NCBI GenBank assembly: GCA_003990765.1 | Contig: RBNJ01000090.1 | Span: 1-42,411, forward strand | Origin: Jimgerdemannia flammicorona | Taxonomy: Eukaryota | Direction of reading: 5' to 3' | Length of the DNA stretch: 42,411 nucleotides | Part shown: positions 1,414 through 42,281 of the stretch, in pieces | How the letters are laid out: each line of letters begins with the position of its first letter | How positions within the stretch are numbered: the first letter of the stretch is position 1 | The notes under the pieces: generated by a model | The model's input: only the letters and a program-made list of their open reading frames with translations | Databases searched by the model: none | Told to the model about the DNA's origin: nothing | Translations under genes and position numbers: made by a program

Positions 1414-1449
<36 letters not shown>

Positions 1450-12700: not shown

Positions 12701-13149
12701 ACCAAGCCAAGAAGACATCAAGAATATACTTCTGAGAAGTTAAAATAAGACCAATCTTGGACATAAGTAACCTCAGAACTAACTGTGGATTCCCTAAGAA
12801 CAAAACCCTAAACCAGAGCCAGACAAGCTATTACAATTAGGACAAGGTAGTACCAAGACACCTTGGACCAAAGAACCCACCAGCTAGTAATTGATCTGAT
12901 ATATAGAGATTTATACAAGATCTTAAGAAACTACCACTAGGGCTGTTAAACAGTTCAAATTGATTTTAATTGGTTCAGATCATCAGTTTATATCCCAAAT
13001 TGGTTCAACTAATTAGTTTATTGCTATCTGGCATCAAAAATTATTTTATTAGCCTAGTAATTGATTTCACTAAGAATATAAGCAATTTGTAAAGTTGAAA
13101 GCTTGTGAAGTCTATCTTATAATCTGAGGCTTAAGACCATTACATAATT

Positions 13150-13885
13150 ATATGCCTGAAAGAGAGAGGGGAGGAGGGGGCATACTTGTCTTGTCTCATC
13201 ACTCAAAAGTGGGGAGGAGTTCCAAAGGGCACCTTAACTAAGGTATATATATATTCTCTTTATCTAGCTTTTCAAAAGGGGAGAGTGGGGAGGGTTTGAA
13301 ATGGTGCCTTAACTAAGGTATATAATTATATATTTTTTTCTCATCTAGCTTTTTGAAGGGAGAGAGTGTGTGCTTGTCTCATCTCACTGCTCATTTCAGC
13401 TTTTCAAAAGGAGAGAGTGTACTGCTAGGAGAAGGGTTCAAAATAGTGCCTTAACTAAGATATATAATTATATACTTTTTCCTTTTATCTAGCTTTTCAA
13501 AAGGGGGGGAGAGTGTGCACTTGCCTCATCTCACTACTCATTCTAGCTTTTTAAAATAGAGAGGGTTTGAAATGGTGCCTTAACTAAGATATATATTTAT
13601 ATTCCTTTTATCCAGCTTTTTGAAGGAGTGGAGGATGTATGCTTGCCTCATATCACTACTTATTCCAGATTTTTGAAAGGAGGAGGGTTCAAAATGGTAC
13701 CTTAACTAAGGTATATATATATATATTCCTTTTATCCAGCTTTTCAAAAGGGGAGGGTGCTCAGCTTTTTGGGTTTATAACAGCACCTTAACTAAGATAT
13801 ATATATATTTCTTTTATCCAGCTTTTCAAAAGAGCTTTTTGAAGGAGAGTATATGCTGCTCATTTCAGCTTTTTGAAAGAAGAGA
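13150..13885 (+). repeat. Degenerate tandem array in the hAT-2 3' region (core ccttaactaag(g/a)tatat...tccagcttt(tc/tg)aa)
   Basis: ccttaactaag recurs near 13232, 13307, 13449, 13578, 13700 and 13786. Confidence 0.9.
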
Positions 13886-14039
13886 GAGGATACAACTCAA
13901 ATAACCCAAGAAATATGTTGATGACTCTTCTCTTACTTTTAATATGATCTCTGATTGGCCTCAAGTAATTATAACAGAATAACTCTAACAACTATCAGTT
14001 TCTACATTTTACACTTTATCAGTAGACTCAGTAAATGAT

Positions 14040-15765: not shown

Positions 15766-15972
15766 TTTGATATATAAGTGTTTTTTGTAAAAGATGTAAA
15801 TTAGCGGCTCATGAGAGACCACAGGTCAATGAAGGCAGGAAAGTCTTAGGCACTTAGGTCTCGGGCATATTGTTTTCGGATGTATTGGTTTCAGGCATTG
15901 AATAGCTGTCTTCGTTTCGGGTGCCATCGTCATTGCATGGCTTGTCTCAGTCATGAGTAGTAACATCCACCT

Positions 15973-16329
15973 TTTGACCTGAGCATTTAAAATTTAATAA
16001 CTCCATGAATCCATATCCAATGTTAATAATCTTGGTCATGTTTGGAAGCTATGAATATTGGCCTCCAGGCATATTTTATTTCGATGAAATCGGATGTGTA
16101 TTCATCGAGCCATTGCACGTTAAAAAACTTAGGTCGATCGCGGGTTGACTCTTCAAACGGCGATCGACCCGAGTTTTTTTAAAGTGCAATAGCTCTATGA
16201 AAACACATCCGATTTCATCGAAATAAAATGTGCCTGAAAGCCAATATTCATATCTTTCAAAAGTAATCAAGGTCATTAAGACTGGGTGTAGTTTCATGAA
16301 GTTATTAAATTTTAAACGTTCAGATCAAA
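15973..16329. repeat. Long imperfect inverted repeat (arms ~170 bp, centre ~16150) upstream of the hAT-2 transposase
   Basis: For example ttttatttcgatgaaatcggatgtgt pairs with acacatccgatttcatcgaaataaaa, and ggtcgatcgc pairs with gcgatcgacc. Confidence 0.92.
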
Positions 16330-16575
16330 TGGCAGACACCTTGCGGATTGTACTTTTTGCTGAAAGAGACCGAGTTCTATTACTGTTTCAAGTCAAGTAG
16401 CCGATTCTGAATATATAAACTCATACAGGAAGTATTTATATGATTTATTCTTATGTAAATAAGAAATAAAGATACAAATCATTTTGAAACCGCTGACTGA
16501 ATCGAACCAAACCAAAGCGGTTCAAACTGGTTTGAACCTTTTGGCTTCAAACCATTTAACAGCCTTAACTACCAC

Positions 16576-18240
16576 CCAGGTCTCAGGAATACAGTCAGTC
16601 ATTGTAGGTTCTACAAACTTCTCAATAGCTACCTTGAAACCACTAGGACTCAAGAATCTACTGCTGTAGCCACCTAGGAATTTCTAGACTATATCTCACC
16701 CTCTACAGCAAGAGCAGCAGTGGCCAAGTGGTTAACATCTAGCAGATATCATCATACTCCTACCAGAACATCTCTCTACTACAGGCTAGTTGCATACTAT
16801 ATCACTACTATATCAAGATATAAGACTGAACAGGCAGGCCACCCACTCCCTACTGCTGATCAAGAAGCAGGCTCATCTACCTAGCCAGAAACTGATATCC
16901 TCTTCAAACTATCTCATCAAAAAAGGGAGTGAGACAAAAACTCTACAGGATATCTGTCTAACAATAGCCAACAAGAAACAGCAGGCCTAGGAATTTACCA
17001 AAGATCTATAGGTCAAGAAGATCAGACTCTAAAACCAATCCAGCCACTCATATGGAGGTTTGGTTTACCAACTCTTATAGGACTTTTTGATCTGATCTCT
17101 GGAAATCAAGTAACCCCAAGTCATACAGCACTATAACCTCTTCAGGCAGAATAAACATCAGGAGAATCTACCCATATAGGCCCACTACCAGTAGTTAAGA
17201 AAATAGTAAATACCAATATTATAGCCCTGACTACCCAGTTTGCTGTACTAGCAGGAATAGTAGGACAAATTACTGAATAGAACAAATCAACCAAAAGCTT
17301 GAGAATTGTCACCTTCAGTAGAAGAAATAGTGATATTGAAACATTCATCAATGCAGTTGATATAGGATACTGAGAAAATCAATAGAATGATAATTAAGTA
17401 CCTATAGGGATACTCACCAATAACTAAGACAATATCCTTTAACAGTTATTTGCCACATTAGTAGCACAAGTAGAATCAGTAGTAATATTCTTCACTAGAA
17501 TAGTAGCTGAGTTCTGGCATACTTACCCAGTAATCTAGAAAGACTGCCCTCAAGTCACTAGATAGATACTTGGTCATACTAGGCCAGATTGGGATGAATA
17601 TATAGTAGGCTCAGGACTCAAGACTCTGCTACTGACCAAATTTCGAAATATAGCCTACATATAAGAAACTTGGAACAAACTGGCTCAGATGAAGTTCTAC
17701 AAGAATAATGAGGAGGACCTAGAAACCTTTACCACTAAGATGAATATCTACCTCAAAACTATGAGACTTATCTACCAGAAAAACAATTTGGCCATCATTG
17801 GAACTAGGGCCAATTACCTCTTCATAGCTCTACCAGACTGACTCACCCAGAAGATTAAGATATAAGACCTTCCCCAAGGATGTCCCCACTACTTATAGTG
17901 CTTTGCCCAGATATAAAGATAAGTCTGTAAAATTCTTCCTATATAGGTCCCATGATATCTAAAATATAAGAAAGATAATCAAGATAGAGAGAATCTCACC
18001 AGAAGCAATAACTAAAGAAATGACCAAAGGAATGACCAAAGGAATCAGTAAAATCCCAGAGGACTAAGACTCCCTAATGAGGATAAAAAGAAACAACTTT
18101 GCAAAAAAGAATTGTGCTTCATTTTTTAGAAGGTAGGATATATCTCCTTTGAATATCTTGAGAAGAAAAATAGATCAGATGAACTCTATAACCAGAATAT
18201 CACTGTTATTAGAGAAGGTCCAGAAAAGAAGAACTCTAAG
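16576..18240 (+). pseudogene. Gypsy gag (decayed) ending in a CCHC zinc knuckle
   Basis: Position 5' of pol. ELCFIF*KVGYISFEY at 18109-18156 is a decayed C-x2-C-x4-H-x4-C. The start is not defined. Confidence 0.65.
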
Positions 18241-18650
18241 AATATTATCAAAGTACAGAAAATATGATAAAAGGCTATCATCTCCACTAAGGTCCACTTT
18301 ATTGATACTGGATATAACCTTTATAGTAGTCTAAACCTCATCATTCTACCAAGTACCAATGCCACAGTGTATACTGAAATTGTAATACTAGCTCTTAAAG
18401 GAATATATATTCATCTTCCTGAGCAAAGTAGCCTGGGCAAAGAATTCAACATTAGGCTAAAAGAAGGAGTAGTTGCTTAAGGATTTACTGGTGAAATCCA
18501 TATAATCTTGTAAAATTTTGGAGCCACCTCATTTGAAGTCAAAGTAGATCAAAAAATTGCTCAAGCAATCATCAAAGAAATCTATTTAGATCTCATCATT
18601 GAGGAAGTCTCCAAACTCTCCCAGATAGACTATAGTAAGAAAGGGTCAGT
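18241..18650 (+). pseudogene. dUTPase domain of the Gypsy polyprotein
   Basis: All five trimeric dUTPase motifs appear in one frame and in order: DTGYNLY (AGYDL), EQSSLG (RSSL), GVVA*GFTGEI (GVID.GY.GEI), DQKIAQ (GDRIAQ), DYSKKG (RG.GG). Confidence 0.88.
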
Positions 18651-18928
18651 CAAAAGGTTTTCACAATAATGAAAGATAATAAAAACTAGTATAAGAGAAT
18701 TATATATAGTTATGCACCATATGGACAATGTTCTCATTTTATTAATATACTATATAGAATATATTACTGAATACCATATATGCCTCTCCAAGGTTTCCTA
18801 ATTTCAATCTGAGAAATGCCAAGCCCAGTAGATAGAGAAACTCAAAACAGACCACTCTCTCTGTGAAGAATAGAGAGAGACTGACTTTGAGGAGACTGAT
18901 AGCAATTATAACAATAAGGACAAAGAGC

Positions 18929-19306
18929 CACTGTCGGGTGGGTGTTAGCAGTTTGGGTGGGTCTGGCAGGACATTGGCTATTTGTATTTGAGAAGGGGCG
19001 GCAGATGAGCCTGCAGGAGAAGGTTGTAAGGTGGGAGGAGCTGTTGGGGGATCTGTTGACTGGATGGTGGATAGGTTGGGGTCCCTCAGGGGGGTGGCGG
19101 CAAGGTTTGGTGACAAGGATATGTGAACAGAGTGGTGGGAGGGTGGGAATTGTATTCGATAGAGTGGTGTTTCATCGAGAAGGGGTAGGAAGGAGGGACC
19201 CCCCTAGGGGGATTGGTTAGGGGGTGGGTTTATTGTATTTATATAGGGTAGATGGGTGTAATAAAGAATGAGTCCAAGTGACTATAAAAAAAAATAAATA
19301 AAATAA
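18929..19306 (+). mobile_element. LINE-D: 5'-truncated LINE with an A-rich tail
   Basis: Perfect 16-bp TSD aataaggacaaagagc (18913-18928, 19307-19322); 3' end ccaagtgactat(A)n. ORF 18942-19220 is homologous to the ORF2 C-terminus at ~41870-42156. Confidence 0.95.
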
Positions 19307-19322
19307 AATAAGGACAAAGAGC

Positions 19323-22300
19323 TCAACACCATCAAGGAGAAGAACATTTGCATCAAGTTTATACAGACAGAATGTCAATGTCTTATTAGAAAGTTGTGCT
19401 ACTGGAAACTATATTAGTACCAAGACTGCAAAGAGGATTGGAGCCCAAAGTAGACCAGCTACTGAAAAAAGAAGTATTATCTTTGGTAATGGCAAAACTG
19501 CACCTTTGACCAAGATCTATAAAAATATCAAGAGAAGCTATATTTTAGCATCATACTCTTCCAGAATAAGACATTATCCTAGGAAAGACCTAGTTGACTC
19601 AGTACACCCAGGACATCACCTGGAGGATCAATGATGTTAACCTGACTTATGAGAGTAGAAAGATCATCCTATTATATCAAGAAGATTCTAACTATCAAGG
19701 AATCAAGATCATCTCTACCATTCAAATGAAGAGACTCTCTTGTAAAAAAGAAAATACATACTTAATCTGTATTGCACAAGAAGTCACTGAAGCCCCAAGA
19801 AGTCCAGTCTCATCAGAAGCTTAAGAATTATTTGAGAAATTTTAAGATATATTCTAGAAATCTAAAGAACTTCCAACAAAGTGCCAAATTCAATATGGAA
19901 TTAACTTCATACCAGGATCTGAACCTCTATACAAGAGTATCTACCATCTGGTCCAATCTAAACTCAAGATTCTCAAGGATGAGTTAATAAAACTATTGAC
20001 CTAAGGATATATTAAATCTAGCTGTTCTCTATTTGGAGAACCCATTCTGTTTATTAAGAAGAAGTATGGCTCTCTGCACAATATATATCAACTATAGAGC
20101 TCTCAATAAGATCACTATCAAGAACCAGTATATCTTACCTAGGATTGTTAAGTTATTATACCAAATCTTCAAGACCAAGACCTTTTTCCTACTGGACTTG
20201 TAAAATAGTTATTACCAGATTCTTATTGATAAGAAGAATATTGGAAAGACAGCTTTCAGAATATATTTTGGATACTACTAGTTCTGAGTCATGCCTTTTG
20301 ATTTGACCACTATACCAGTAATATTCCAATATCTAATTAGCAATATCTTTGGACTATTGCTCAATATTTATGTCCTTATATATAATGATTATATACTAAT
20401 CAACAGTAAAACAGTAGAGCTATACTACACTCATCTCAGGCATATACATACTGATCCTTTTACAAGAATACCAGCTATATGCCAAGATGGGTAAGTGTAA
20501 ATTCTATTAAGACCAGATTGAGTATCTAGAACATATCATCTCTGCTAAAGGCATCAATGTAGAACTCCAAAAGGTATCAGCTCTCAAGGATATCTCTATC
20601 TCTACTACCCTCAAGCTACTTCAGTATATCCTGAGTATTATAGGTTACTACCAAAGATTTATCTAAAGATATCTTGCTATTATAGTCCCACTAACTGATC
20701 TGGCCCACAAAAGAGTAAATATCAAGAATGAATGGATTTCCAAGTACACTCAGGCCATGGACCACCTCAAGAGATTTCTTATCAAGGCTCTAGTACTAAT
20801 TATATCTGACTCTACTAGGCTATTTACTCTGACCACAGTTGTCTCTAATATTGTCATTGGGGTAGTATTCAGCCAAGAAGATCATCCAGTGGCCTATCTC
20901 ACCTAAAAGCTCAAGCCAGCTAAGACTCAGTATTCTACTCATGAGAAGGAACTTCTGACCATTGTCACTGCACTCTAGGAATTGTACCACTTTCTTCTAA
21001 GACAAACATTTGTGACCTTCACTAATGACTCTATTCTGTGATTATACAGTCCATGCTGATCTACAGATAAGCCAATTGAATAGAAATCATAGCCAACTTT
21101 AATATAGAAAACAAGTATATCTCAGACAAAACCAACCTTATGACTAATGGTTTCTCCAGATATATGGAGGATAAATCTGTCTTTATGGTTGAGGTAATTA
21201 GAGACCTCACTCTGATTATCAAAGATGACTACCAACAAGGCAGCCTCCTGGTAAAATTCCTTCAATTCTATCAAAATGCAGAGGCTAAGATCTCAGAATC
21301 CATGAGGCAAATTTTCAAAAGATTTACTTATCATAATGCACTTATCTATAGAGACTATGACAGAGTGATTATACCCAATAATGATACTCTATAACTTAAG
21401 ATTTTACAGGAACTCTATAATATTTCTATAGTAAGACATTTTAGTTTTGAGAAGACCTGCAATCTCCTCTCAAGAGAGTTCTACTGACTAAAGATGACTA
21501 AAGATATCAAAGATTTCATAGCTTCATCTCAGATGTGTCAAAGATTCAAAAGTGGCAACAAGTTATCAATAGGACTTCTGCAACCCCTGTCCATCCTTTG
21601 CCATAACTGGGATCAGATTGCAATGGTCTTCATTGTCTAGCTCCCCAAGACTAAGGCAGGATAGAATACTATTATAGTATTTATAGACTGTCTGAGTAAA
21701 TAAGCTTACTTTACCCCCAATAAGACTACTGCTATAGTATCAGAAATTGCTAAAATCTTTCTCAACCAAGTATTCAGACTATATGGCATATCTAGTTCCA
21801 TTGTCTCTGAATGTGATGCTAAGTTTAAAAGCAACTTCTAGAAGACATTCTTCTCTCTCCATAGAACCAAGCTCAAGTTCTCTACTGCCTACCACTCTCA
21901 GACTAATGGTCAGACTGAGTGAACCAATAGGAGTCTCAAGAAGATGTTCAGTATTTTTTACTATTATAAGCAAAGTGATTGAGACAAATATCTAGTCCAT
22001 ACTGAGTTTGTCTACTACAATAGCTAGTAAATCTCTATGAAGATAACTCCATTCTTTCTAAACTATAATCAATACCCAAGAACCCTGAGTACTACTATAA
22101 AATTGGTAGTTCCAGCAGCTCAAGATCTGGTCAAGACTCTTTCGGATCTTATACAAATGACAAGAGAAGCTCTCATAGAAGTATAGGACTACTAAACTAA
22201 GTATGCCAACTTGAAGTAAAGGGAAGCCTCTTACAATATTAGTGACATAGTTATACTTAGAATAGACCATCACTATCCAGATACCCTAACACAGCAACAA

Positions 22301-22680
22301 TCTAAGAAACTCCATGCTAGATGAATTTGACCATATAAGATTGTGGAAAAAGTTAGCAAAGTTAACTACAAGTTACAACTCCACTACAATATTTGAGTAT
22401 ACTCAGTATTCCATGTCAGTCAACTGGTAGACTACAATGTGAACTCATTCTCTGAGCATACAGTTCTACCAATACCCCTAATTAGGATCAATAATCATGA
22501 GAAATTCAAAATTGAGGAAGTACTTGACTGCAAGGTCTACAAATATACTAAAACCATTAAGCTGTTTTTCCTTATTAAGTAAAAGAATTACCCCACCCAT
22601 AATGCTATCTAGAAAAAAGAAGTACTGGAGAATGTATATGAAGAACTTCAGGACTATATAGAAATACTCACCTCTTAGCA
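19323..22680 (+). pseudogene. Gypsy pol: aspartic protease, RT, RNase H, integrase, chromodomain (decayed)
   Basis: LLESCATGNYI (protease DSG, 19383); PILFIKKK, INYRALNKIT, KTAF, VMPFDL, IYNDYILI (RT); HPVAY, YSTHEKELLTI (RNase H); GLLQPL, STAYHSQTNGQTE (integrase); FKIEEVLD...FLIK*KNY (chromodomain, ~22500-22670). Confidence 0.93.
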
Positions 22681-23199
22681 AAGACAGAAAATGCAGCTCT
22701 AAGCTTAGAGTATATAGTAAATAAAGAAGATAACATATATTTATCTGGAATATATAATATCAAATGTTGTGAAAAATGAATACTATAATTAGCCAGCAAG
22801 ACAAACAGATTGTTGTGCTCTAGACCTCTGACATATAGTTAAACCAGAAGGACTGTTTGAATCAGTACAATATGCAGTGACTATACTGATATGATATAGT
22901 ACTTATTAGTAGCTACAGAAAGTCATCTGATCAGGCTTAAACCCCCAGTCTGCAGCCTGAAGAACAACATCTTAACAGAGCAACCAATTCTCTATTTAAA
23001 GTCAAAAGAAGGAAATTTCAAACTGATGAAACTCAGTAATTCCTATTTGATTAGCATATGCCCCACTTATAGTAACAGATCATATATCTCTCTAGGAATA
23101 TGATTGAAATGATATCACACTAGACTAATAAATAAGAATAAATACCCAGAGCTGGAATACACTATAACCTCTATCTCCCTCTCTTCTTCCAAAAGAAAA

Positions 23200-23893
23200 C
23201 CAATATAAGAATACCTACTATCTGCTACCAAACAGCCCAACATAGCCAGTCTCTAACCCTAACTCTTGACTGCCTCTTTGGATATATGTATCTAGATTAC
23301 TATTCAAGGAAGGAACTGCTGCTCTGTGATCCTTAATCTCACCAGCAAGAACCTAGAACACTATGTCCTCAACTACTGTGAAATCAAAGAAAGGGCCTAC
23401 CTTGCTACCAGTCACCTAAAGATCTGGTATAAATATGAAATTAGCCACCAACTACTTTTTTAATATGTATAAGGCCTACTCATTGACTCAGATTGCAGAC
23501 TGGACTAACCTGGACAGATTTTAGTAAAGACTAGTTAAGAAGGTTTATCAAATCATGTACTATATATCTTTTACAATTCCCAACCTCAACTATGTATAAC
23601 TGAAAGACTTCTAGAATGTCTTTTTCTTCAAGGTTGATATACTGGAGATCAAGATTATCCAGGAAGCCAACTTCTAGATTACTCTCAAGTCTACTGACTT
23701 CAAATCCCACTAAAGCTCTCTCCTAAATAACAACCCAGACCAATGGCTCAAAGGTCTTTCTGACCTCTTTGAAGGGTCTCTCTTCTAAATAGATTTCTCC
23801 AGACATGATGAGCAAGAACTCTATCTGAATGGTCCCAACTATATTAGATAGAGAACTCCTATCTCACTGCCTATACCAGTTTAAGAACTATTT
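23200..23893 (+). pseudogene. Decayed extra ORF between pol and the 3' LTR, 5' part (continues at 30313-30415 after LINE-B)
   Basis: A codon-like frame ...NLEHYVLNYCEIKERAY / FNMYKAYSLTQIADWTNLDRF...KVDILEIKIIQEANF...DQWLKGLSDLFEG continues in frame across the LINE-B TSD into ESFADLIDFFILDIKP. No recognisable domain. Confidence 0.45.
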
Positions 23894-23972
23894 TTTATTT
23901 TTTTCTTTTATAGTCACTCAGACTTTGCCATTTATTATCAGTCTATATATAAAATTACATTATCTTCTCTCA

Positions 23973-26900
23973 CTACCCAATCCACATAGGGGAACCCCCC
24001 CCCTTTATGCTTGAAAACCACCCTGTCTCCTATGATCCTAATTCTCTCCCTACTCTTTTCTCCACCAAATAGCATTGCTGACCACCCTGCAGTCCCCACC
24101 CATACCACCAGCCCATCAGAGTATCTGCCATCAATCCTTCTCATTATAACAGTTATACCCCAAAGCCCAGATGCCTCCCATTCTCAAACACAAACAACCA
24201 GTGACCTGCCAACCCCACCTATATAGCCAGCACCCACCCTAAAGTGAGCCACTTCTTTTCAACCTCTCCCACCAATCTATCCCATGGATCCTTCCACTGA
24301 CCCCTCACACTATCTCCTCTCTACATGACACCCAACCTCTTCACAACTCCTAGTGCTCCTAATGAGTCAATTTAATCTGGATTAGATTCAGATTGATTCA
24401 GATTGAATCTCATCCTGATCAACTTGGATGGGATTCAAATCCCATCTGGATGGATTCGAATTAACCATTGTTTTGATTTCCAAATTAGACAATTAAATGT
24501 TTACATCAATAACTCAATGAATAATCATCCAAATTTGATGATCTTGATGTCATTTGAATGCCCTTAATAAGACCAATCTAATGATATCAAGAACATTGCA
24601 ATTGGATCATGCGTTGCTGAGTTATGAAGGAAACCGTCTGAATTGCCAATTTTGGAAATTATTCAATTTGCCAATTTTGGAAATTTCATCAAATAGAATA
24701 TTTTCCTTAATATCTCATCTCGGCAACGCGTAATCCGATTTTAATGTTCTTGGTATCATTAGAAAGGCCTTATTAAGGTCTTTCAAATGACACCAAGATC
24801 ATCAAATTTGGATGATTATTCATCAAGTTATTGATGTAAATATTTAATTACCTAATTTGGAAATCAAAACAATTGTTGATTCGAATCCATCTGGATGGAA
24901 TTTGAATCCCATCTGGATTGACTCATTCAGAGAACTATCAACTGCTATCCAGAAGTTACTGAGCATCTCACACTCCTCTAGCCAATGTTCAGGCATCTGC
25001 ATAAAGCTCTCTTCCTGTCCAACATTATAGCACTCCTCACAGTCAAAGGTTCTCCCATCCACCAGGTGGCCAGAGTGAAAGTTGAGCATGATATTCTACT
25101 GCAATATATGTCACCAGACCACTCAATACTTTGGTGACAGCAACCACTGAACCTCAGCTCTCCAGGTCCAGATACCACTCTAGTCCCACTCTTCTCTGAC
25201 ACCCACTAATGACTATCTGCTGGGCCATAATCCTGCCCCAACCTCCTGTGGCACTCAACTCCATCACCAATATCAAAGTCACCAAGAGAGATGCCCTCCA
25301 GCAACACTTGGTCTCATCTCTATATTGCTGGGCCCAAGGCCTTTCTTTCTCATCTCTCTTCTAATGAATGCCACTGTGGTGTGCCCCATCAGCAACTCCC
25401 CACCAGAAGCTCTTAAACTACATATGCCTATTGTTCTGAAGCCCAACCAAGGACAGAAGATCTCCTGTGAAACCTCTCAGTGAGGAACTCATCTCCCAGA
25501 CCTTCTTCAATAGAGGAACTCAGCTGCTGCCCTCTAGCTCAACAGCTCTCTTTATCTACTATACTCTCAGATAGTGTAATTTCTTCAGGAAGTCCACCAG
25601 CCTGAGTCCCCCTCTAGTCACTGGTAGGGACAAAATTTCCCAGCTAATCTGACTCCTCCTCTCAGCCCAGATCCACCCCTTGGTCAGTTTTAGCAATCTC
25701 TTCACCACTCAGGCCAGGAAATTCAGATAATAGACCAGATATCACAACTTTGGCATCCAGTAAGTATTGAAGATGGAAACACATCTATACCAGAGACAAG
25801 TAGTGGCCTCCCTAGCTCCACAGGGCCTCTCCCCAGATAACCACCCACTGCTCCCACCAGAGTTTTGGGAGAACTGACCCATATACTGAAAGATAGATGC
25901 CTAAGTATCTCACTGCCTCCCCAGTAGAGACAATTGTTCTGATACATCCCCCCCCACCAGACCATTATCCAGCACTATTGTTTCATACTTATGTCAATTG
26001 AGTTTAGCCCCAGAATGTAACTCTTATCACTCTATAGTCTCCTTGAGTTCCTCAATATCAGTAATTGAGTCCAGACTAACTACTATATCATCCACAAAGG
26101 TACCAACTTTCCACTCAATGCCAAAAACTGAAAGCTCTCTTATCTTCTACCAAATTCTAAAATTCTATCCATTAAGAACTCCAAGATGAGTGCATACAAA
26201 ATGAGAGACAACAGGTCCCTCTGGGGAATACTCCTACCTAGAGAGAAAGTCACCCCTCAATGCCCATTATATATGATCACAGCCCTGCTCTCTTCCAGTA
26301 GACTGCCTATTGCTTCTAAGAACTATTGAGGGATATCAATTCTATCGAGTACTTTTGCCAATCTAACTCTCTGAACATGGTCATATGTCTTCTCCTGATC
26401 CAAGAAGACTAGGCACTCATCTAGTCCACAGGCTTATGTCCCTTCAATAACACTATATACCCAAGCTATATTATCCTGAATGTGTTGGCCTCTGACAAAT
26501 CCCCACTGCTCCACTCTCAAGACCTATTGGACCACCTTCTGCAGCCTCACTACCATTATATTAGTAATCAACTTCCTGTCTATATCCAGTATCATGATCA
26601 GTCTCCAGGTCTTCCAGTCCTCTCTCCTATCCTTGTTCTTATACTGCAGCATCACCAGCCTCAGATCCTGCTCACCTACCTATCTCTCAGACTGTAGTAC
26701 CAAGTCACATAGTGCCCTCAGCTCTCTCAGCAAATCAGAGATATCCACCATCTTCTTCCAGAAAGCCCAGGGCAGGCCATCCTCCCCTGGTGCTATACTC
26801 AGCATAGTTGCAGCAAGAATCTGATGAATCTCCTCCTCCTGCACTAGTATCACCAGATTGCCCAGCCCTTCTATCTATTGTGGGTGCCAATCCCCCAAGG

Positions 26901-28187
26901 CCAGACCAATGGTGGCTTCCTCAGCCCCACCCTCCTTCTCACTCCACAAGCCACTCTACTGCTCCTTCAGTGACCTGAGAATGTCATATATACTATGTAC
27001 AAATAGTTCCTCAGAAACTAGAACCCCTCCCACCTCTACTGAACCCTCCTTACTCAAAGAGCCCTTGTGAGAAACTTAAAGGGCCTCTCTCCTTCCTCCA
27101 GCCCCTGCCAATATAGATATACTGCCAAACTCTACACCTGCACTTCCTCCACCTCCTGCAATATCTGTTACAACTTCATAACCTCCATTTTTACCCATAA
27201 AAATCTCCAATCCTCCACCCTCTTCAGGACCAACAGACCTGTCCAATCTTCCAACAGTCTCATCAATATAACAGAAGCCCACAGTCTCTTCTTCCTCCTC
27301 TATCTCCCAGCAACTATACCTGTCTCTCTTCAATAAACCCTAGCAGCCTCTTTCAGCCTCATTCACCTAGCTCCAACTGAGACACCTTTCTATATCCACC
27401 CCTCCACCCTCTGCTAAATATCCTCAGTCCACTTGTCCCATAGTATCTTATTGTCTAATAGGGAGGAGTTGAGACACCAATGTCCCAGTCCATCCCTACT
27501 CTCACCAAAATGGCTCTATCTCAGCAATCTCTAATGATCAGACCATGAACACCATTCAGCCTCCAGAGACCTCTAAACATCCAGACTCCAGCAGTCCACT
27601 GTCAAAATCCAGTTAATCCTTATCTCCAGACAACTTGCCTAATGTGTGTACACCCTCCTGTCACCCCACAGCCTGCTACTAACATCCACCAAAGAACTCA
27701 GCCTCTCTACTTCCTCCCATATCTCCAGACCTCCACTCCTACTCTCTGGCCCCCACCCTCCATCAGTTCTCTCCAACAGTACATCTCTGACCATATTAAA
27801 GTCTCCACCAAGCATATCTAGTCCAGCCTTTGCCAGAGTCCCTTCCTTCTAGAGACTCTTCACTTACTCTACATACTCACTCTGCACTGCAGAACAGTAG
27901 TAAGATTCCACTGTAACTGGTTCCTGACCAAGGTGAATCCACTCTTCCCAAACCAGCCTATCTCCCCAGTTCTGCACATCTTGTACCTCTCCTCTGCCCT
28001 TCCAAACTGCCTCCCATCTCTATTCCTTCATCAATTCCAGTTTATCCAAATCATTCTCACACCTGACATCCTGCAAAAGAAAGAGATCAGCCTCCAATCC
28101 CTTCAGCCAAGCAAAAATATTCTATTAATAGAATGAACCCTATAGTCTATTTACATTTTAAGAAAAAATGTTAGTTGTACTATTTAT
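23973..28187 (-). pseudogene. LINE-B ORF2 (APE endonuclease, RT, C-terminal cysteine finger), interrupted by a MITE
   Basis: LGGDFNMV, WSDH, LDQEKTYD, PQRDLLS, FVDDI, FDCEEC...EHWLEEC. Confidence 0.88.
24351..24937. mobile_element. Non-autonomous hAT element / MITE (587 bp), largely palindromic
   Basis: TIRs tagtgctcctaatgagtcaat / attgactcattcagagaacta (same family as hAT-1 and hAT-3); degenerate 8-bp TSD acaactcc / tcaactgc; internal inverted arms ~24428-24632 and ~24702-24913; no ORF. Confidence 0.9.
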
Positions 28188-28218
28188 AAGAAAAAATATA
28201 TAATAGTAAGTATATCCT

Positions 28219-30200
28219 CTACTGCTCCATATTCATCTCATCTTAAGCTAGGTCCAGATCATATTCCACAGCTTTCTCCTCTTCTTCAGTCCTCTTAGCC
28301 TCCAATTCAACCAGAAGTTCTGTGAGCTTTCTATCCTCCTTCTCCTCAAATTCCTCATAATATTCCAGGCAGGCCTTCTGCCAGAGCTGCAACCCATGCT
28401 GCTCTGCCCAACAGAAAGCAGCCCTCTCACCAGCTACAACTGCCAGCCCAGCCTCCCTCTCCTTATCAATCTCATTCCCTTCCTCTTTCAGAAAAACTGC
28501 AAGAATCTTCGACTTCAGCACCTCCACCACACCCTCACTATACAGAATATGTACTCAATACTCATTACTCATCACTCATAAGTCCACCTCCCCCAACTTC
28601 TCTGCCACAAAGTTGTTTATCATCTTGCACATCTATAGCAGATTTCCCACTTCTTTCCTCTTGAAAGTTGCTGGCTGCCCTCCATCCAGTATTGAGATAT
28701 CAGCCCCAGCACTCATAGCCTTATCCCACTCCTCCTCTTGATCATCCACCAGTTCTTCCTCATCTACTGCCACAACCTGCCTCTCTTTTGCTACTTCAAG
28801 AACTCCAAAGTATACTCACTGAGCTCTCCACATAGGTACATCCTCTACATCCCTGCCCCTTAAAGCTGGACCCTATCTAATAAGAGGTGTAGAGATCAGG
28901 GATGGCTCTCAGACCTCAAAGGTATCATCCCCATATGGGTCATGTGCCTTCTCTGCCTCTCTCACTTCTGGCCCCTCCTCTGTAATTACACTATCATTGC
29001 TGGCCCAGATGCTCTCCTTGGCTCCCCCCACAATTTCAATACCACCAGCATCCTTCTTCACTCTTCTTTCCAGATTCACAAACAGCTCTCTCTGTCTCTT
29101 ACATTCTTGGGACCTTTCCCACTGCCCCTTATCTATCTGAATTATCTTTCCATCTACTACTTCCAAATGTATCAACTCAACAAATACTTTCCAAGCCTTA
29201 GTCCTCTACTCCACAGCCCCAATCAGCTCCTCCAGTGCCTCTAACAGATCCTCTTCCTCCTCCTCACTCCCCTTCATCCTAGTCACCTTGTGTAAGAAAG
29301 CCCCCCAGACCATCAATGAAGGCCAGTCTCAAGCCTTTCTGGTAGCTTCCTTCCCTGCTAACTGAATTCGAATATCTATATCCTCAGTCCTGAACAAGGT
29401 CCCCTCCCAGACCCAGAACCCAACATCAACCTCCTCACTATACTCAGCCATGACTTCCTCAACTCTCCTCCTTGTCTCCTTAGTGGTCACTGTAGGCACT
29501 CCTTTTACCAGCAATTGTACCACCCTGGGGTCCCATCTCAAGCAACACATCATCAGAACACACATCTCTCCAACTATCAACTCAGCCTTCAGCACCTCCT
29601 CCAAAGGTTCATTCTTCTTGAAGCCAACCTCCACTCCTTCTAGTCTCTTCAATAAATTCACAGATACAGCTTCAGCCACCTGCTTGGCAATTAGCCCCAG
29701 TACCATTTTCACTATCACTGCTAAGCCCCTGAAGTACAAAGTAGCTATGAACTCCAATATTGACTTCTTGAGTAATGGGGCCACCACCAGACCCATTACA
29801 CTATCCACTAGGTCCTCCATCTGTCTAAGTCCCATTCTCTCAGCCCCACCATCAGCAGTCATATCTGGATTTTTTCCAGATTAACAGTCCAACTACCATC
29901 AGGCATCATACTTGTCTCAGCCACTATACCTCTAGCTCTACTTCCCCTAGTGCCAAGGGCAGCCCCCTCCTGCCTAGTTGTTGCCACCATCATCTTGCCC
30001 CTCCTCAGCCAGCCCTTCAGCCCAGATGTTAGCCATCCTTCCTTCATCACATCTGCAAAACTGGCCCTCTCTGACCTCTGCCCTCTGACCCTCCCACCAG
30101 CAGACCCCTCATACTCCCCCTCAAGTCAGGGCCTCTCTCCACATACTGTCAGTCAAATACACTAGGGCTACTCTGCTCAATACATACCTCAGAATGTATG
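28219..30200 (-). pseudogene. LINE-B ORF1
   Basis: ORFs 29329-29862 and 28243-28530 are homologous to LINE-C ORF1 (VAPLLKKS.LEF, WDPRVVQL, VWEGT). Confidence 0.8.
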
Positions 30201-30410
30201 TTAGTCAATATGATACTAGATGCTTCTCTCTAAAAACTATATTGTGAGTGTTGCCAAAAGATTGTATAACCTGAATGTTACAGGAGAAAGGTTGCCAGTT
30301 TAAGAATCATTTGCAGACCTCATTGACTTCTTTATTCTTGATATTAAGCCATCAGTAACCACTCCTCTAATTACTGAAGGAAATGATAATAACAATGAGT
30401 TAGATAAGAA

Positions 30411-30559
30411 AGAGGAGAGAGAGGGTTGGAGTAGTGAGTAGTAAGATGGTATTTAAGTATGAAAGTATGGGGGAGGCCCCTATAAGGGGATTGGGTAGTG
30501 GGAGGGGGTACTGTATTTATATTTGATAGACTGATAATAAATAGTGAAATCTAAGAAAC

Positions 30560-30597
<38 letters not shown>
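30411..30597 (+). mobile_element. LINE-E: very short LINE 3' end with a 35-nt poly(A)
   Basis: cccctataaggggattgggtag...gatagactgataataaa...actat(A)35 matches the reverse complement of the LINE-B 3' end. No clear TSD; the 5' boundary is approximate. Confidence 0.85.
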
Positions 30598-30599
<2 letters not shown>

Positions 30600-30657
30600 T
30601 ACCCCACCCACCCCTCCCCTGGTTCTCAATTTTCAGATCAATACAGACATTGACATT

Positions 30658-30671
30658 TAAGGTAAGAAGAA
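30658..30671 (+). promoter_or_regulatory. Polypurine tract (decayed)
   Basis: taaggtaagaagaa immediately precedes the TG of the 3' LTR. Confidence 0.65.
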
Positions 30672-31401
30672 TGTAATAGAACAAATGAATGAATGAGATG
30701 AATAGATAAGATATAATAAATAATCACATAATCTGACAATGATGTCACTATTGAGTGATATATAACATATGATAAATATAATATAATAAATGAGATACTA
30801 ATGATGCCAATAATATACTAAATTATATCCAGCCAATCTCTAGTAACTGAGGCTACAAAAAATACTGTAGTAACTAATTATTGCCTAATAATAAAGGTCC
30901 TGATCACAAACCACCTGATCACAAAAATCACAATTACAAATCTCATCCATAGTTATCAAATTAGTCACTCATATTTAGTCAGAAATTACAAACCAATTTG
31001 TATAAATACCTCTTAGTTCAATCCAAATAAAGACAGTTTTAGTTCAGTCCTTAATAAAAAATCAAGTCCCCTATATAAATATATATTTTCCTTTGAGTTT
31101 TAATAATAACATCTATGTGATAAAGCCTAGCTAACTTCTGCCAGAACTGAGACTGATATATAAATTACAAAGACTTAAGTAAACCCCTTATTGAACCTGA
31201 ATTCCAAGATAAATTCAGTCTGTGCACAGCAAAGAATAAGTCCCTTATAACTACAGTTTACTTCTACTATAACTACTTTCTAGTGAGTACCTCCTCACAC
31301 TGAAGGCTTCTTAGTACACTTGTATACTAAGTCCCTAAGTAATACCTTGGTTCTTTAATTATTCAAAGAATAAGAGAGGGGTTGAAATTAGTGTTATTAT
31401 A
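30672..31401 (+). repeat. 3' LTR (730 bp, TGTAAT...ATTATA)
   Basis: Colinear with 11929-12682, e.g. the identical stretch caaattagtcactcatatttagtcagaaatta. The terminal CA has decayed to TA. Confidence 0.92.
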
Positions 31402-31977
31402 AAGTAAAGTGAGGTCTTACAAGGAGAAGAGGTGGTGTAGAAGTTTTGAGATAAGCTGATAGCAGATCTGTTAGAGGCAGAAGAGTATGAGATGGATGAT
31501 AACAGAGAGGCAGTACTTTTGATGATTACAAATGACTATGCAGCCTATCTGTAGGGCCCTAGGAAGAGATTGGCAAAGTGGCAGATACTGTGTAAGGAGT
31601 ATCAGTCTAACATAGAAATAGTAGATGGTGAGGACTATTGGGAGATCTTGGAAGTACTAGATACTCAGCTGAAAGAGACAGATAAGCTTGAGATAAAGAG
31701 GAACCTGGATGTTACTAGTAATACAGTGAGTATGGAATTATAAAGCAGTTAATTTATCTCCAAATATTATTCAATATGAACAGTATAACTAGAATTTTCT
31801 CTTTAAATATCAATGGATTAAGGGGTGCAGTAAGGTATCAGAATATTTTCAGCTAGTTGAAGAGATTGAATATAAATCAGTTCTTGCTGTAGGATATAAG
31901 ATACAATGAGAACTTAGATATATTAGATTAGATAAGAGAATTGAATAGTATGGCTATATAGTAGGGTTGGGTAGATA
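31402..31977 (+). mobile_element. LINE-A segment 3 (end of ORF1, start of ORF2 endonuclease)
   Basis: attattcaatATGAACAGTATAACTAGAAT (MNSITRIFSLNINGL) near 31776 is nearly identical to the LINE-C ORF2 start at 38542. Confidence 0.88.
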
Positions 31978-32199
31978 TAGTGCTCCTAACAAATTGAATT
32001 GAATTGAATTAAATCTAAATATAATTCAATTCAAATTTTGAATTTTGAATTAAATTTAAAATTTAATTCAAAGTTTAATTCAAAACTAAATATGGTAATT
32101 CAAAACTTATATGGGATAAAACTCACAATATTAATACATATATATATTCAAGTATATTACAATTAAGCATATCAGATATATCTTCTATAGTACCACTTA

Positions 32200-34965
32200 T
32201 AGTGGATACTATAACAATAGCTTCAGTGTCAGATACAGCTTCAACAAGTATAGCTACAACAAGTATAGTCTCAATACAACAGACTAAGAAAGAAAAAGAA
32301 AAAGCAAAAGAATACTTTAGTATTTGGAAAAGAGTATGTGGAGAATGGAGACATTAGAAGAGTTGAATATAATTACTGTAAAATGACATATATATTTATT
32401 GATGGCTCTATAACAAATCTATAGGTACATTTTGACAAATTTTACAAAAGAAATCAAATAGAAGTAAGAGAATTGTTTTTCTTAAAAGTATAGTTTTTAT
32501 ATTATTTGTTTGCATTTTTTGTTTTTTGTTTTTTGTTTTTCTTATTAATTTATTGCTATTTGATATATTAAATAGCCAAGATTTTTTATGAAATTATTTC
32601 AAAATATGCTTATCAATAGAATATCTATGACATTCAGTCTTTTACAGTTATTGAAAATTTAGAGCTGAGAGATCTTTTTTGCATTTTGAAATCAGATATT
32701 ACTATTCCTTCTGCTGGAACTATAGCAAGTAAAATTAAACTGGCATTTTAAAAGAATCATAATGCTGTTAAAATTACACTACAGAAAAGATCTAATATTT
32801 AACTTTAAATATCAGTTATAATATTCTGAATTAATCTCATTTCAATTAAATTTATTTCAAAATAGAATATTCTAGATAAAATATTCCTCATTGTTTATTC
32901 ATAGATATTATTGAATACACATATATTTTTTGGAATTAATATATATTAGATTTGTCAAAATTGGCAACTCAACTTTATATTGATTAATTTTGTTAAGCTA
33001 TTGGGATCTCATTTTGGTGAAAATCTTGCTGATGTATTTAGGAGCTATGCTTGAGATTTTGGTATACAAACAATGATATGTAAAGCTTGAGTGAGCCTTT
33101 TAAAAGAGATTTCAAAAAGCTCAAGTTTTCAAAAAAGTTTGAGATTTTAAAAAAAGTCAGGTTTTCAAAAAGGTCAGAGGTTTTCAAAAAAGATTAGGTT
33201 TTTGAAAAAGGTTTGAGTTTTTAAAAAAGGTTATATTTTTGAAAAGGTCAGATTTTCAAAAAAGGTATAGTTTTTGATAAAAGTTAGGTTTTTAAAAAAC
33301 AGTTATATAATATTTTGAATTATTGATTTTTCACTTTAGATATTGGCTATAACAAAAGATAATGTATCTAACAACTATATATTTTTTTAAACAATTGAAA
33401 TAGAGTTCAATTATAGCCACAACTATTGGTCAATATAATATATACTATATAATTCATATTATTAATCTGGCTGTTTAAGTCTTTTTAATCTGTCTGAAGG
33501 CTGAAGATAATGGAGAAATAATTTCAAGTCTTTGAATGAGTATTATTAAAATCTGTTCATTAACACAATATCATAAGAGATTTACTGTACAATGTAAAGT
33601 CTATAGAATCAACAATCAAAAAGAACTTATTTTGGATATTAAGACTCAGTGAATCTTAATATATTCAATAATTGAACAGACTATTGAATTATTAGAGATA
33701 ATTATATTTAATTACATTTAATTTGTTAGTTGTACATAGAGGTGATGTGAGTCCATAATTATGCCTTAGTCTAACCTAATAAATTAATTTTTATTAAAAG
33801 CCTGTAAATTAAATAGTTATAGCTGATAAAGATTTGGAACAATATATTATTAGAGATTGTACTTGATAATTGCTAAAAGATATCATTTTGGTGTTAAAGA
33901 GTTTTCAACATATAACAGATCTTACAACTTAGTAAAAATATCCAATAATTTATTATACAATTCTGATTTACAACTTTCTACTAGATATGATAGAGGATAA
34001 TGATAAAGTATTTCATAATCATATAACAGAATTGGAAGAATCTGGAGAGCAGAATACTCTTATTCAACAAGTGCTATCAGTAGCTATTAATAAGTTGAAA
34101 AATACAATTCAATGATATATTCTCTGATTTATTGTTTTGGTACTGATATGTAATTTATTTAATAAAAATCAGTTCTTGATCCCAGGCTTAAACTACAATA
34201 TTATTCAAACTACAATTGGGAAACCATTTGGATTAAAGTGGCCAAAACAACTGTTCACAGAGTCTATAATAAAAACTACACCCTGACATTAGTTTATCAT
34301 GAAAGTTCTGAAGATTATACTAAAGAGAAGACGATATTGATGATAATATTTATGATATTACTGAGCTATCTGAACATATATTCAACAATAAAAGGCAAGA
34401 ACTGATGATAAATCCTGAGAAGAAGTTAGATAATTATTTGAAAAGTGAAACTGTTAAATTTCAACTAGGAGTTAATATATTGTCTTGATGGCAAGTGAGT
34501 TGGTCTAATTCAAAATATTATAGGTCCAAATGGAAATATTATTAATTTTATTTAATTCATTGGAAACATTAGGGATATAAAAGAGATTATTCAAATCTAG
34601 AACAAATAGTATATGATTATTTGGCTATTCCAGTAATAAGTAAATCTATAAAGAGAGTTTTTTCAAGAGAAAAAGATCTTGTGGCACCTAAAAGAGGTAC
34701 TTTAGAACCTGAAACAATTTAAAATGATCAAGTGATTTATCTTGGCTATTGCCCTGATCCTCCTAGCTGTTCTGGTTACCTCTCCTGCCCTGATCATTGC
34801 CCTGGCCCTGGTGGTCACCTCAGCCCCCCTAGCTACAGTCATCTTAGTCACTCTAGCCCTAGTTGTCCTGCCACCCCAAAGCCAAAAGGCCATCCTCGGA
34901 CCAGTTGTAATAATTGCAGATAATATGGAAAGACTTATGGTATCCTCTCTAAAATTTACCTGAAG
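32200..34965 (+). pseudogene. Intron-containing hAT transposase pseudogene
   Basis: RVEYNYCK...GSITNL*VH (BED); FTVIEN; FVKLLGSHFGENLA; ILAITKDNVSNN; IHIINLAV; ELILDIKT; VLDPRLKLQYY; DYLAIP.ISKSIKRVFS. Confidence 0.88.
33095..33300. repeat. Intronic minisatellite (~20-bp unit, core T4-5[CA/TG/TA]A4-6)
   Basis: About ten copies, such as ggttttcaaaaagg, tttttgaaaaagg and tttttaaaaaagg. Confidence 0.9.
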
Positions 34966-35493
34966 TTAAACCCATTGACTCCTGATCTATCTTTGGGAAA
35001 AAGACCTTATGATAATTCCCATTAGTTGGCTATTTCTGTAGCTAGGCATGCTGCTAGTTACTAAGTATCAGATAAGTAGAATGGAAGAAGTCATGAGTAC
35101 TAAATATATTATATTGCTATATATTTAAACAATTGAAACACCAAACCACTAACTTTAAATTTCAAACCTAAATTTTTAGAAATTCAATAATTTGATAAAA
35201 TCATGTCCAAATTTTATAACCTTAGTTGTACTGGATTTGACTTAAAAAGGAAAATCCTACAAGCTAAAATTCTTCAAATTTGGAGTCATATTATTATATT
35301 TTAAAGTTTGGCTTTCAATTGCAAATCCAATCAGACCTCAATTTGATTTGAACAATTTGAATTGGATTCTAATTTGATTCAAACTCAATTTGATTAGAAC
35401 TCAATTTGAATTTGAAAATCCCCAGTTTAATTTGGTTCAAATTACCCTCAATTCCATTCAATTTAAATTGATTCAATTCATTTGAGAGTACTA

Positions 35494-36553
35494 GTTAACC
35501 CTAAGAAACTCTAAGCAGACAAATTCAAGAGCATCTTGAGAACTTTGCTATAGCTTAGAGATTGTTATGAATTCATTAGTTACAAGTCTACTACTCTATT
35601 AGACAATCTCTTCCAGACCCTATATATATAAAAAGGCTTGTATATTTAAACTACCAAATTGATATAGCTGCCAGAAGAATCTATATACTCTATAGATATA
35701 ATGTAAAAGTACTTGCCTAAGTACAGTTTCATCTCAATAATATCCAAAAGATGAATGAAGTGATCTTTCAGAGTTTTTGGTAACAAGTAGAGTTCCTATT
35801 CTTAGACCCCGAATAGCAAAACTCAGATCTCAAATAGAGTGATCCTAATTCCAACATAGATAATAGTACTAGTATTGATGCAGAAGATGTTGATGCCTAC
35901 TAGAATACTGACTAAAGGATAGTCTGAGGACAGACCATCCTTTAGTGGAGACTAGTATAATCAGCAATATAAGTATAACTAAATGATATGACTCCTATAT
36001 ATCATAGTTACCCTCATATTACCTAGTTGCTATAAAAATCATATAAATAGCATCAGATGCCTTGATCAAGACAAATGCATCCTAGAGATACTATACCCTA
36101 AAGTTACTATACCCTTAGAGTACAAAAGAAGTCACATACTATATTTAGCTATATAATATATTGTATAATTATATAGATTGTAGCTAAGATAGCAATCACA
36201 ATATATAAAACACCTCAGAAATAAGAATGAATAAACCTCAGCCTGAATTACAGTACTAATTTCAACTCTTGTTAACTTTCTAATACAAAGTTTGAGATTT
36301 GCTATCAATTTTGAGAACTTTGCTACTAATTGAAGAGAAACTTACTACTTAAGAAATATGTAAGTTACTCTATTTTGATCTATTTATTAGATAAGTTTGA
36401 AGAATTTGAGAAGTCTGCCATCTTGCTACACAGTCTATCTATCTGATGCAACTTTGTAGTAGAGCTAGTCTTCAATATAATAACATATAAATGAAGCCTA
36501 TCTTGATATATGTAACTTTGCTAAGTAAAAAATCTACTATCTGTTAATGGCCA
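35494..36553 (+). mobile_element. Possible 3' relic of a second LTR element (decayed ORF, PPT-like tract, LTR-like sequence from ~35956); target of LINE-C
   Basis: Coding-like frame (DKFKSIL..., YQIDIAARRIY...QVEFLFLDPE), then gaggacagaccatcctttagtggagactag|tataat. A ~100-bp unit at 36431-36535 recurs at 42313-42405. Confidence 0.35.
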
Positions 36554-36599
36554 GAGAGTCTCGTATAGCAGACAATACTCTTGATAATGTTTTTGGTAA

Positions 36600-38510: not shown

Positions 38511-38541
38511 GCTGGGTTCTCAAATTCAACCATTATTCAAT

Positions 38542-42156: not shown

Positions 42157-42219
42157 GGGGAAGTGGGTGATATTGTATTATTATTCTAGATTAAGGTAAT
42201 AAAGGGAAGTCCAAGTGAC

Positions 42220-42281
<62 letters not shown>

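Follow-up and report, generated by a model that had tools for sequence, protein, structure and literature searches.

hAT transposons and Tc1-type, TA-flanked elements in the genome of Jimgerdemannia flammicorona carry a common symmetric module, a 115-bp dyad in which short boxes are held at fixed distances while the sequence between them diverges. The window in which it came to light is positions 1 to 42,411 of contig RBNJ01000090.1 (assembly GCA_003990765.1, forward strand), 42,411 bp in all. An earlier note on this window had described five CC...GG stretches of exactly 77 bp, and all five were present (16017–16093, 16209–16285, 24529–24605, 24735–24811 and 35207–35283) and could be aligned without gaps. 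The 77-bp stretch forms the inner part of a longer unit that measures 115 bp between its outer boxes. The exact dyad proposed for positions 28–32 and 46–50 was found in three of the five copies (16209, 24735 and 35207), while the copy at 16017 reads GGAAG/CCTCC, one base short of a reverse complement, and the copy at 24529 is two bases short. Nor are the five copies independent. Those at 16017 and 16209 are arms of one long inverted repeat (15970–16127 and 16175–16332, 84 % identity) and those at 24529 and 24735 are arms of another (24427–24621 and 24719–24913, 88 % identity), the modules matching their partners at 83 and 87 % reverse-complement identity respectively. The window therefore holds three loci and not five.

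The first locus is hAT-2 (12938–16567, minus strand), a decayed autonomous-type hAT with the terminal inverted repeat (TIR) TAGGGCTGTTAAA, an identical 8-bp target site duplication (TSD; 8 of 8 bases, 12930–12937 and 16568–16575) and a minus-strand transposase with zf-BED (E 2.7e-6) and Dimer_Tnp_hAT (PF05699, E 2.4e-7) domains; the family has 19 candidate places in the genome. The transposase frame starts with the BED finger (15517–15765, minus strand), and its first ATG lies about 290 bp away from the closer of the two module centres. The long inverted repeat at 15970–16332 holds module 1, of the GAAAG type (15998–16112, centre 16055; 16017–16093 plus the outer boxes), recognized by profile score and family alignment, and its inverted partner, module 2 (16190–16304, centre 16247). 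The second locus, MITE-A, is a gene-less hAT MITE (family A, TIR TAGTGCTCC, 24351–24937) inserted in a LINE. Its 8-bp TSD matches at six of eight bases in the window copy; of the 14 family copies for which both ends could be located, 11 match at all eight. A first look at the genome gave 1546 candidates. It contains module 3, the more decayed arm (24510–24624, centre 24567), and module 4 (24716–24830, centre 24773), which has five extra bases at its left outer box (171 bases vs 166 in other copies). Both hAT-2 and MITE-A also carry short subterminal repeats of their own besides the module. The third locus is hAT-3 (31978–35493, plus strand), an old hAT assigned by Dimer_Tnp_hAT (PF05699, E 3.2e-6) and its TAGTGCTCC-type ends; the window copy has TIRs and no recognizable TSD. 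Module 5, of the GATTY/RAATC flavour, lies at its 3′ end (35188–35302, centre 35245). MITE-A and hAT-3 thus have the same TIR type and hAT-2 alone is a distinct family within the window. Apparent modules at the 3′ end of hAT-3-like elements at two other loci (L017 and L010) turned out to be MITE-A insertions.

A profile built from 13 modules of families other than those in the window ranked the five modules as the five best sites of the window, with scores of 55.7, 49.8, 66.0 and 97.1 for modules 1 to 4 and −0.3 for module 5. The best score in 40 dinucleotide shuffles of the window was −2.1 (mean −22.6, SD 6.2), so that shuffled sequence did not give equally good matches. The hAT-3 copy is marginal by its own score and is confirmed through its family.

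The full unit reads TAACT-N14-CCGATTT-N20-GAAAG-N13-CTTTC followed by the mirror image, which places three boxes in each half, at 53–57 bp (TAACT), 32–38 bp (CCGATTT) and 7–11 bp (GAAAG) from the centre. The outer box, TAACT or TATCT, lies 14 nt outside the CC. Four box letters are near-invariant (C20, A23, G47 and A48), and conservation is weaker beyond the outer boxes. The suggestion that geometry is conserved without the intervening sequence was borne out, with boxes 85–94 % identical and spacers 36–49 % identical between GAAAG-type modules of the hAT MITE, hAT-2, family F and marine or soil contigs. A mutation hotspot 15–18 bp from the centre, seen in hAT-2, was not general (31 of 1368 vs 306 of 18 297, P=0.105).

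An exact-pattern search of the genome gave 413 GAAAG-type and 184 GATTY-type matches and none with a reversed control. Spacing was almost invariant: the 413 matches with 20/13/20 spacing compare with one for a centre of 14–17, two for a centre of 9–12 and three for one arm of 21–24, these being the variants tried, and all six off-length matches were single-copy indels. In the two flavours GAAAG goes with CCGATTT and GATTY with CCAAATT. The GATTT/AAATC pair of module 5, previously read as a single compensatory change, is an instance of a second flavour found genome-wide, and there are also hybrids that combine a box of each flavour and have unpaired cores. Descent from one recently nested element is ruled out, as the modules form 61 clusters at 78 % identity (280 distinct modules) and their hosts are both hAT and Tc1-type elements. 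The hAT hosts have 8-bp TSDs and short TAG-type TIRs (hAT-2 and MITE-A); family E has Tc1-type CAGTG ends with TA flanks in most copies; the hosts at L054/L061 and L066 are TA-flanked MITEs; and the host at L139 is a unit bearing a Tc1 transposase. The module is thus confined neither to one family nor to one superfamily. Membership of a Mutator-like (PF20700) element at L148 was not accepted because a hAT-type end stands between the modules there.

Contigs from marine and soil metagenomes show the same geometry. When arm lengths were left free between 15 and 25, there were 27 matches, 13 of them 20/20. The search pattern did not include the outer box, which stood at 14 nt (at least four of five letters) in 17 of the 19 matches that had an arm of 20 and in none of the eight without. 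The 13 matches of 20/20 type represent only three lineages, one being a 78 % relative of MITE-A. Several repeat families in the marine contigs contain the module, with flanks that diverge past about 70–80 bp. The contigs with the module are probably eukaryotic in origin; a Pfam search of six of their ORFs gave no match. Palindromic sites such as REP, attC and recombinase sites occur in prokaryote, phage, plasmid or viral DNA. The prokaryote collection gave four matches, none of them 20/20 and none with the outer box; the viral collections gave zero, zero and three matches, all off-length; and the phage and plasmid collections gave none. With no in-register match in these collections, a prokaryotic or viral origin was rejected.

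CpG survival is elevated around the modules of hAT-2, falling with distance from the module centre from 79 % within 70 bp to 68 % up to 150 bp, 53–57 % up to 450 bp, 20 % up to 600 bp and 3–8 % beyond. In 11 of the 12 copies, CpGs close to a module survived better than those farther away (P=0.001, paired Wilcoxon test). In window coordinates the zone of surviving CpGs spans 15590–16567 (41–70 % per 150-bp bin vs 2–14 % further in). General protection of element edges was rejected, as the module-free end of hAT-2 keeps only 7 of 88 CpGs (8 %). Since the transposase promoter coincides with the protected zone, module and promoter are inseparable there. In MITE-A, which has no gene, CpG survival ranges from 58 % in 15 copies picked by pattern to 78 % in 29 loci picked by similarity. 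These figures have no internal control, and search patterns that contain CG favour young copies; transversion divergence is 0.4–1.2 % for MITE-A and 0.6 % for the hAT-2 interior, where CpG survival is 6 %. Across pooled loci the observed/expected CpG ratio was 0.8 within 200 bp of a module and about 0.3 beyond. Survival was weak in family E (33–40 % near modules vs 18–20 % outside, the latter from only seven sites), and the hAT-3 family kept no CpGs at its GATTY module (two sites, 16 observations). The marine contigs show no CpG depletion (observed/expected 1.1–1.5); escape from CpG methylation therefore cannot be the whole function.

The earlier note proposed a dyad protein-binding site, a nucleosome-positioning signal or a cruciform or RNA stem, and the first of these three mechanisms fits best. 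The reading preferred here, to which we give about an even chance from the sequence evidence, is that the module is a symmetric duplex platform of nucleosome size, read by protein, that keeps transposon ends accessible and poorly methylated. It would be a cis-acting, two-fold symmetric platform of 115–140 bp, recognized in duplex form by a symmetric protein assembly contacting three boxes per half. This putative reader is most likely host-encoded, since one and the same site serves transposase families that are unrelated. Binding would keep a few hundred surrounding bases accessible and poorly methylated, the open zone would help the transposase promoter and the element ends to stay usable, and active elements would consequently be selected to keep boxes and spacing. 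Families may acquire the cassette from each other by recombination, and arm-to-arm copying may keep it roughly palindromic. A broader proposal, which we regard as tentative and on balance doubtful, is that the module is an ancient eukaryotic cis-element of nucleosome size, read by a conserved host chromatin complex. Transposons from different superfamilies and remote lineages would have captured this element and passed it among themselves, sparing their ends and promoters from heterochromatin, and the two flavours would correspond to two reader specificities.

The module could instead be read as a structure, a DNA or RNA hairpin or cruciform recognized by, for example, a recombinase or nuclease, which we consider unlikely. 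There is excess covariation: among 20 family representatives, with G-U scored as paired, arms pair in 79 % of cells vs 67.2 % in shuffles (34–46 % in slid controls), with 177 two-sided changes vs 88 and none of 500 shuffles as high, although relatedness and arm-to-arm copying, which yields the same covariation, may contribute to these counts. Covariation beyond shuffles is not needed by a pure box-reading model and counts against it. Spacer symmetry is also higher inside modules (0.64) than across families (0.52), and 8 of 11 folded modules had z below −2 (−4.3 for module 3 and −6.9 for module 4). The remaining three folded no better than shuffles, namely both hAT-2 modules (z −0.5 and −0.8; module 2, −0.53) and that of family K, all within −0.5 to −0.8. 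These modules keep their boxes without a stable hairpin, which was counted in favour of the duplex platform, and a hairpin is thus no requirement in hAT-2. A hairpin would need neither the 13-nt apex nor the fixed arm lengths, yet no family of other length turned up; the hybrid modules have unpaired cores, and a search of five loci against Rfam at the gathering score gave no match. Selection may otherwise have acted on bendability and on no specific protein contact, making the module an intrinsic nucleosome-positioning sequence, which seems about as unlikely. Conservation fades about 68–70 bp from the centre on both sides, close to nucleosome length, A/T dinucleotides have a period near 11 bp, and a universal reader would account for the spread. 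Canonical nucleosomal A/T phase falls at 5, 15, 26 and 36 bp, with a period of about 10.2 bp over about 147 bp; the outer peaks of the module (46, 57 and 66 bp) are in phase, but the inner ones (about 10, 23 and 33 bp) are not. Moreover, the near-invariant letters resemble base-specific contacts, and CpG survival reaches the linkers and 450 bp away.

Two further explanations concern the transposons themselves. The module might simply ride along as a palindromic passenger, either selfish or passive: a small, old mobile unit that repeatedly inserts into transposons, or is copied from one to another, without benefit to them. It occurs at one to four copies per element, singly, in inverted pairs or in tandem runs; it shows a genome-specific flavour across families; the hAT-2 module and central linker resemble (72–79 %) a cassette at the 3′ side of the Tc1-transposase unit at L139; and spacer identity of 36–64 % between lineages suggests common descent. 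Against this, neither a sharp shared boundary nor a target duplication of its own was seen, nearly all copies of each family have the module at a fixed place, neutral descent would not hold boxes and spacing while spacers turn over, and CpG survival is left unexplained; we judge a passenger to be improbable. Least probable is a transposon-encoded reader acting in trans among families, such as a VANC-like or TET-recruiting anti-silencing factor. Local CpG survival would fit, and TET genes pass between fungal transposon superfamilies (PMC12730594). However, known VANC targets are 9-bp, family-specific and fast-evolving (PMC5735166), no such gene was noticed in hAT-2 or the MITEs, and the module also occurs in contigs without CpG depletion.

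A literature search found no description of such a module. Known palindromes in the regulatory regions of transposons that influence epigenetic fate are similar in being palindromic and regulatory, but they are fast-evolving, variable and tied to siRNA targeting and silencing, whereas the module has conserved geometry, CpG survival and DNA transposon hosts. The unrelated Anopheles MITEs Joey and Pegasus reportedly have a common internal segment. This segment and a chaetognath insertion, palindromic and 90 bp long (PMC2997562), are likewise shared or mobile, palindrome-like and of similar size in animal repeats, a comparison made by description only. The VANC sites of Arabidopsis VANDAL (Mutator-like) elements are same-direction tandem arrays of 9-bp motifs in one family with a transposon-encoded reader (PMC5735166). 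They too are cis motifs in non-coding transposon DNA linked to local methylation loss, of which CpG survival is the only counterpart here, but the module is a fixed-spacing dyad common to hAT and Tc1-type families. The m1m2 pairs of the Caenorhabditis CERP2 and CELE2 MITEs are spaced motif pairs common to two MITE families; a host factor reads them, they show promoter activity, and TT recurs nearby with a 10-bp period (PMC9757741). They have two motifs at loose spacing (12–16 or 23–28 bp) and, compared by description only, differ from the three mirrored boxes per half at invariant spacing seen here. Subterminal transposase-binding repeats of hAT and MULE elements (Muta1) also lie near ends within long inverted repeats, but are short, tandem and family-specific (PMC5499845), while the module crosses superfamilies.

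The presence of one long, fixed-spacing site in hAT elements, Tc1-type elements and distant organisms implies that all of these exploit the same reader or the same structure. To our knowledge, transposon superfamilies are thought to have almost no DNA sequence in common, and the anti-silencing sites we know of are short and family-specific. The module would provide a superfamily-independent marker for finding transposons and is possibly a portable element against transgene silencing. It bears on the question of how the promoters and ends of DNA transposons stay functional where the genome methylates and mutates repeated sequence.

Five 77 bp modules, located where the earlier note had placed them, aligned without gaps, but they represent only three loci. 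The modules at 16017 and 16209 are arms of one long inverted repeat (84 %) and those at 24529 and 24735 are arms of another (88 %); paired arms align in direct orientation only because each module is roughly palindromic. The host elements are hAT-2 (12938–16567), with an identical 8 bp TSD on both sides, a MITE (24351–24937; family MITE-A) and hAT-3 (31978–35493), with no visible TSD. The hAT dimerisation domain is present in both hAT-2 and hAT-3, and the MITE and hAT-3 have one TIR type in common. No significant tblastx match was obtained between the hAT-2 and hAT-3 coding regions (best E 0.09). The MITE is located inside a LINE-like element (23890–30600) that faces another at 36400–42250, the two being ~67–72 % alike with a poly-A end on each. 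A run of 17–19 bp repeats, possibly intronic, occupies 33109–33316 within the hAT-3 transposase region and likewise occurs in a further family member (L010).

In other families the full unit was TAACT-N14-CCGATTT-N20-GAAAG-N13-CTTTC-N20-AAATCGG-N14-AGTTA (115 bp). Twenty representatives, cut to 115 bp around the centre, aligned without gaps across 115 columns, with information down to background ~68–70 bp from the centre. A profile trained on 13 modules, all from outside the three window families, placed the window modules at ranks 1–5, all above shuffled sequence, the hAT-3 copy marginally; four scored 50–97, and the hAT-3 module scored −0.3 vs −2.1 for the best of 40 shuffles. The profile had no match in a separate imperfect palindrome at 11429–11498 (70 bp, 77 %).

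The strict pattern had 413 matches in the 231 Mb eukaryotic assembly of which the window is one contig, and none in the reversed control; among 50 of these matches listed, most belonged to the MITE family. Altered spacings were rare (central spacer of 14–17, one match; 9–12, two; first arm of 21–24, three), and all off-length matches were known modules with one- or two-base indels. A second flavour, CCAAATT with GATTY/RAATC, had 184 matches (control 0), including the hAT-3 copy, and is used throughout the hAT-3 family. The GATTT/AAATC pair, previously taken for a compensatory change, is therefore a genome-wide variant. The middle box of this flavour was CCAAATT or CCAATTT, and many of the copies listed belong to one near-perfect palindromic family. 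Over the loci fetched by then, the profile detected 280 distinct modules, which clustering at 78 % identity placed in 61 groups, decayed singletons being numerous.

The hAT hosts have three end types. Family E, a 1.58 kb element, is assigned to the Tc1 type from its CAGTG ends and the TA flanking most copies. Another module-bearing unit with a Tc1 transposase (DDE_3, HTH_Tnp_Tc3_2) is common to two loci (89 % over 2.2 kb, ends indefinite), and family F carries modules in tandem with ends of yet another kind. Modules adjoining a PF20700 transposase may be part of a nested hAT end. At L139 (positions 98 and 2500), insertion of a TA-flanked element has split the module core, which is unsplit in L262. 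One family E element (L130) is interrupted midway by a retroelement that has reverse transcriptase-, RNase H- and tyrosine-recombinase-like frames, as judged by eye and without a Pfam match, and has kept CpGs throughout.

A metagenome scan, allowing arms of 15–25 and leaving the outer box out of the pattern, gave 27 matches in 25 loci, 13 of them at 20/20. Where a match had an arm of 20, the outer box (at least 4 of 5 letters, 14 nt out) was usually present (17 of 19); none of the eight matches lacking such an arm had it. Three lineages account for the 13: a single assembly contributed ten, the TA-flanked MITE family of L054 and L061 contributed two, and the last (L064) is related to MITE-A at 78 %. 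A further TA-flanked MITE with CAGGGTG ends (L055/L066) has one exact arm. One contig of the ten-match assembly occurs in a sequencing run labelled marine. These marine contigs carry a module roughly every 0.7–1 kb, in several repeat families with differing flanks; nine loci from one metagenome assembly (among L049–L068) have up to seven modules in 7.5 kb and are non-coding without CpG depletion. Being non-coding and repeat-rich, the contigs look eukaryotic; no gene pointing to their source organism was found. Prokaryote genomes gave four matches, all off-register, three scans of viral contigs gave 0, 0 and 3 (those three off-length), and phages and plasmids gave none. Between lineages, GAAAG-type boxes were 85–94 % identical vs 36–49 % for spacers; spacer identity between MITE-A and family E was 64 %.

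Across the window the CpG observed/expected ratio was 0.13; most repeats were close to 0, and the gene-bearing first 4 kb had 0.6–0.9. The host gene region at 640–3410 is CpG-normal, with a 377 aa P-loop frame (weak RHSP match) and a weak SAM-like piece, genes that presumably resemble the Crinkler type. Judging from sequence, the host would appear to be a fungus, probably an early-diverging one, with CpG methylation of its repeats. Ancestral CpG sites were deduced from CG/TG/CA columns in 13 fetched hAT-2 copies and the window copy. Survival was 79 % up to 70 bp from the module centre, 68 % to 150 bp, 53–57 % to 450 bp, 20 % to 600 bp and 3–8 % beyond, and was higher near modules in 11 of 12 copies in which the two zones are present (P=0.001). 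Irregular tandem repeats of ~80–140 bp (13200–13890) have lost their CpGs at the opposite, module-free end, where 7 of 88 sites were kept. The gene-less MITE kept 58–78 % vs 6 % in the hAT-2 interior, at like transversion divergence. The effect has been lost from L162, in which truncation follows the first module, and from L160, whose boxes carry several changes; these changes may be a result, not a cause, of methylation. Counting against protection by the module, the surviving hAT-2 zone doubles as promoter, family E showed 33–40 % vs 18–20 % at few sites, the hAT-3 family kept no CpGs at its GATTY module (two sites only), and the marine contigs show no depletion whatever.

Covariation was in excess, with 79 % paired vs 67 % in shuffles, above 500 of 500. 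Hairpins were strong or moderate in eight of 11 folded modules, but a module read as a hairpin is unlikely: a hairpin would not require its apex and arms to be of fixed length, and the two hAT-2 modules and the K module, which give no significant hairpin, still keep their boxes in register. An Rfam search of five loci gave no match. Nucleosome positioning is quite unlikely; A/T dinucleotides are periodic at ~11 bp and match the canonical nucleosome phase only in the outer half of the module. The symmetry was taken to have arisen incidentally, through inverted duplication and copying between the arms; that the whole module is a passenger palindrome is distinctly improbable. A reader encoded by the transposons is very improbable.

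The literature consulted included PMC12730594, PMC4728375, PMC11071193 and papers on ATon (PMC3422177), m1m2 motifs (PMC9757741) and a 90 bp chaetognath palindrome (PMC2997562), the last without its sequence. By membership tests the module falls outside obligate hairpins, prokaryotic sites, VANC targets as described (PMC5735166) and family-specific subterminal repeats as described (Muta1, PMC5499845). A full-text literature search, with few subscription papers in scope, did not find a description of the module. On the strength of the membership tests we regard it as categorically new, with the reservation that repeat curators may already have noticed the pattern, since similar motifs are presumably present in insect and plant repeats and an internal segment is reportedly common to unrelated Anopheles MITEs.

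The likeliest reading, at even chances, is a symmetric protein assembly, probably the host's, that would read the module as duplex DNA and through which nearby chromatin would stay open and poorly methylated; binding, the identity of the reader and causation are each what we infer. The open chromatin would serve the transposase promoter and the element ends. The resemblance of the hAT-2 inverted repeat to the cassette of the Tc1 unit (72–79 %) suggests exchange of the cassette between families.
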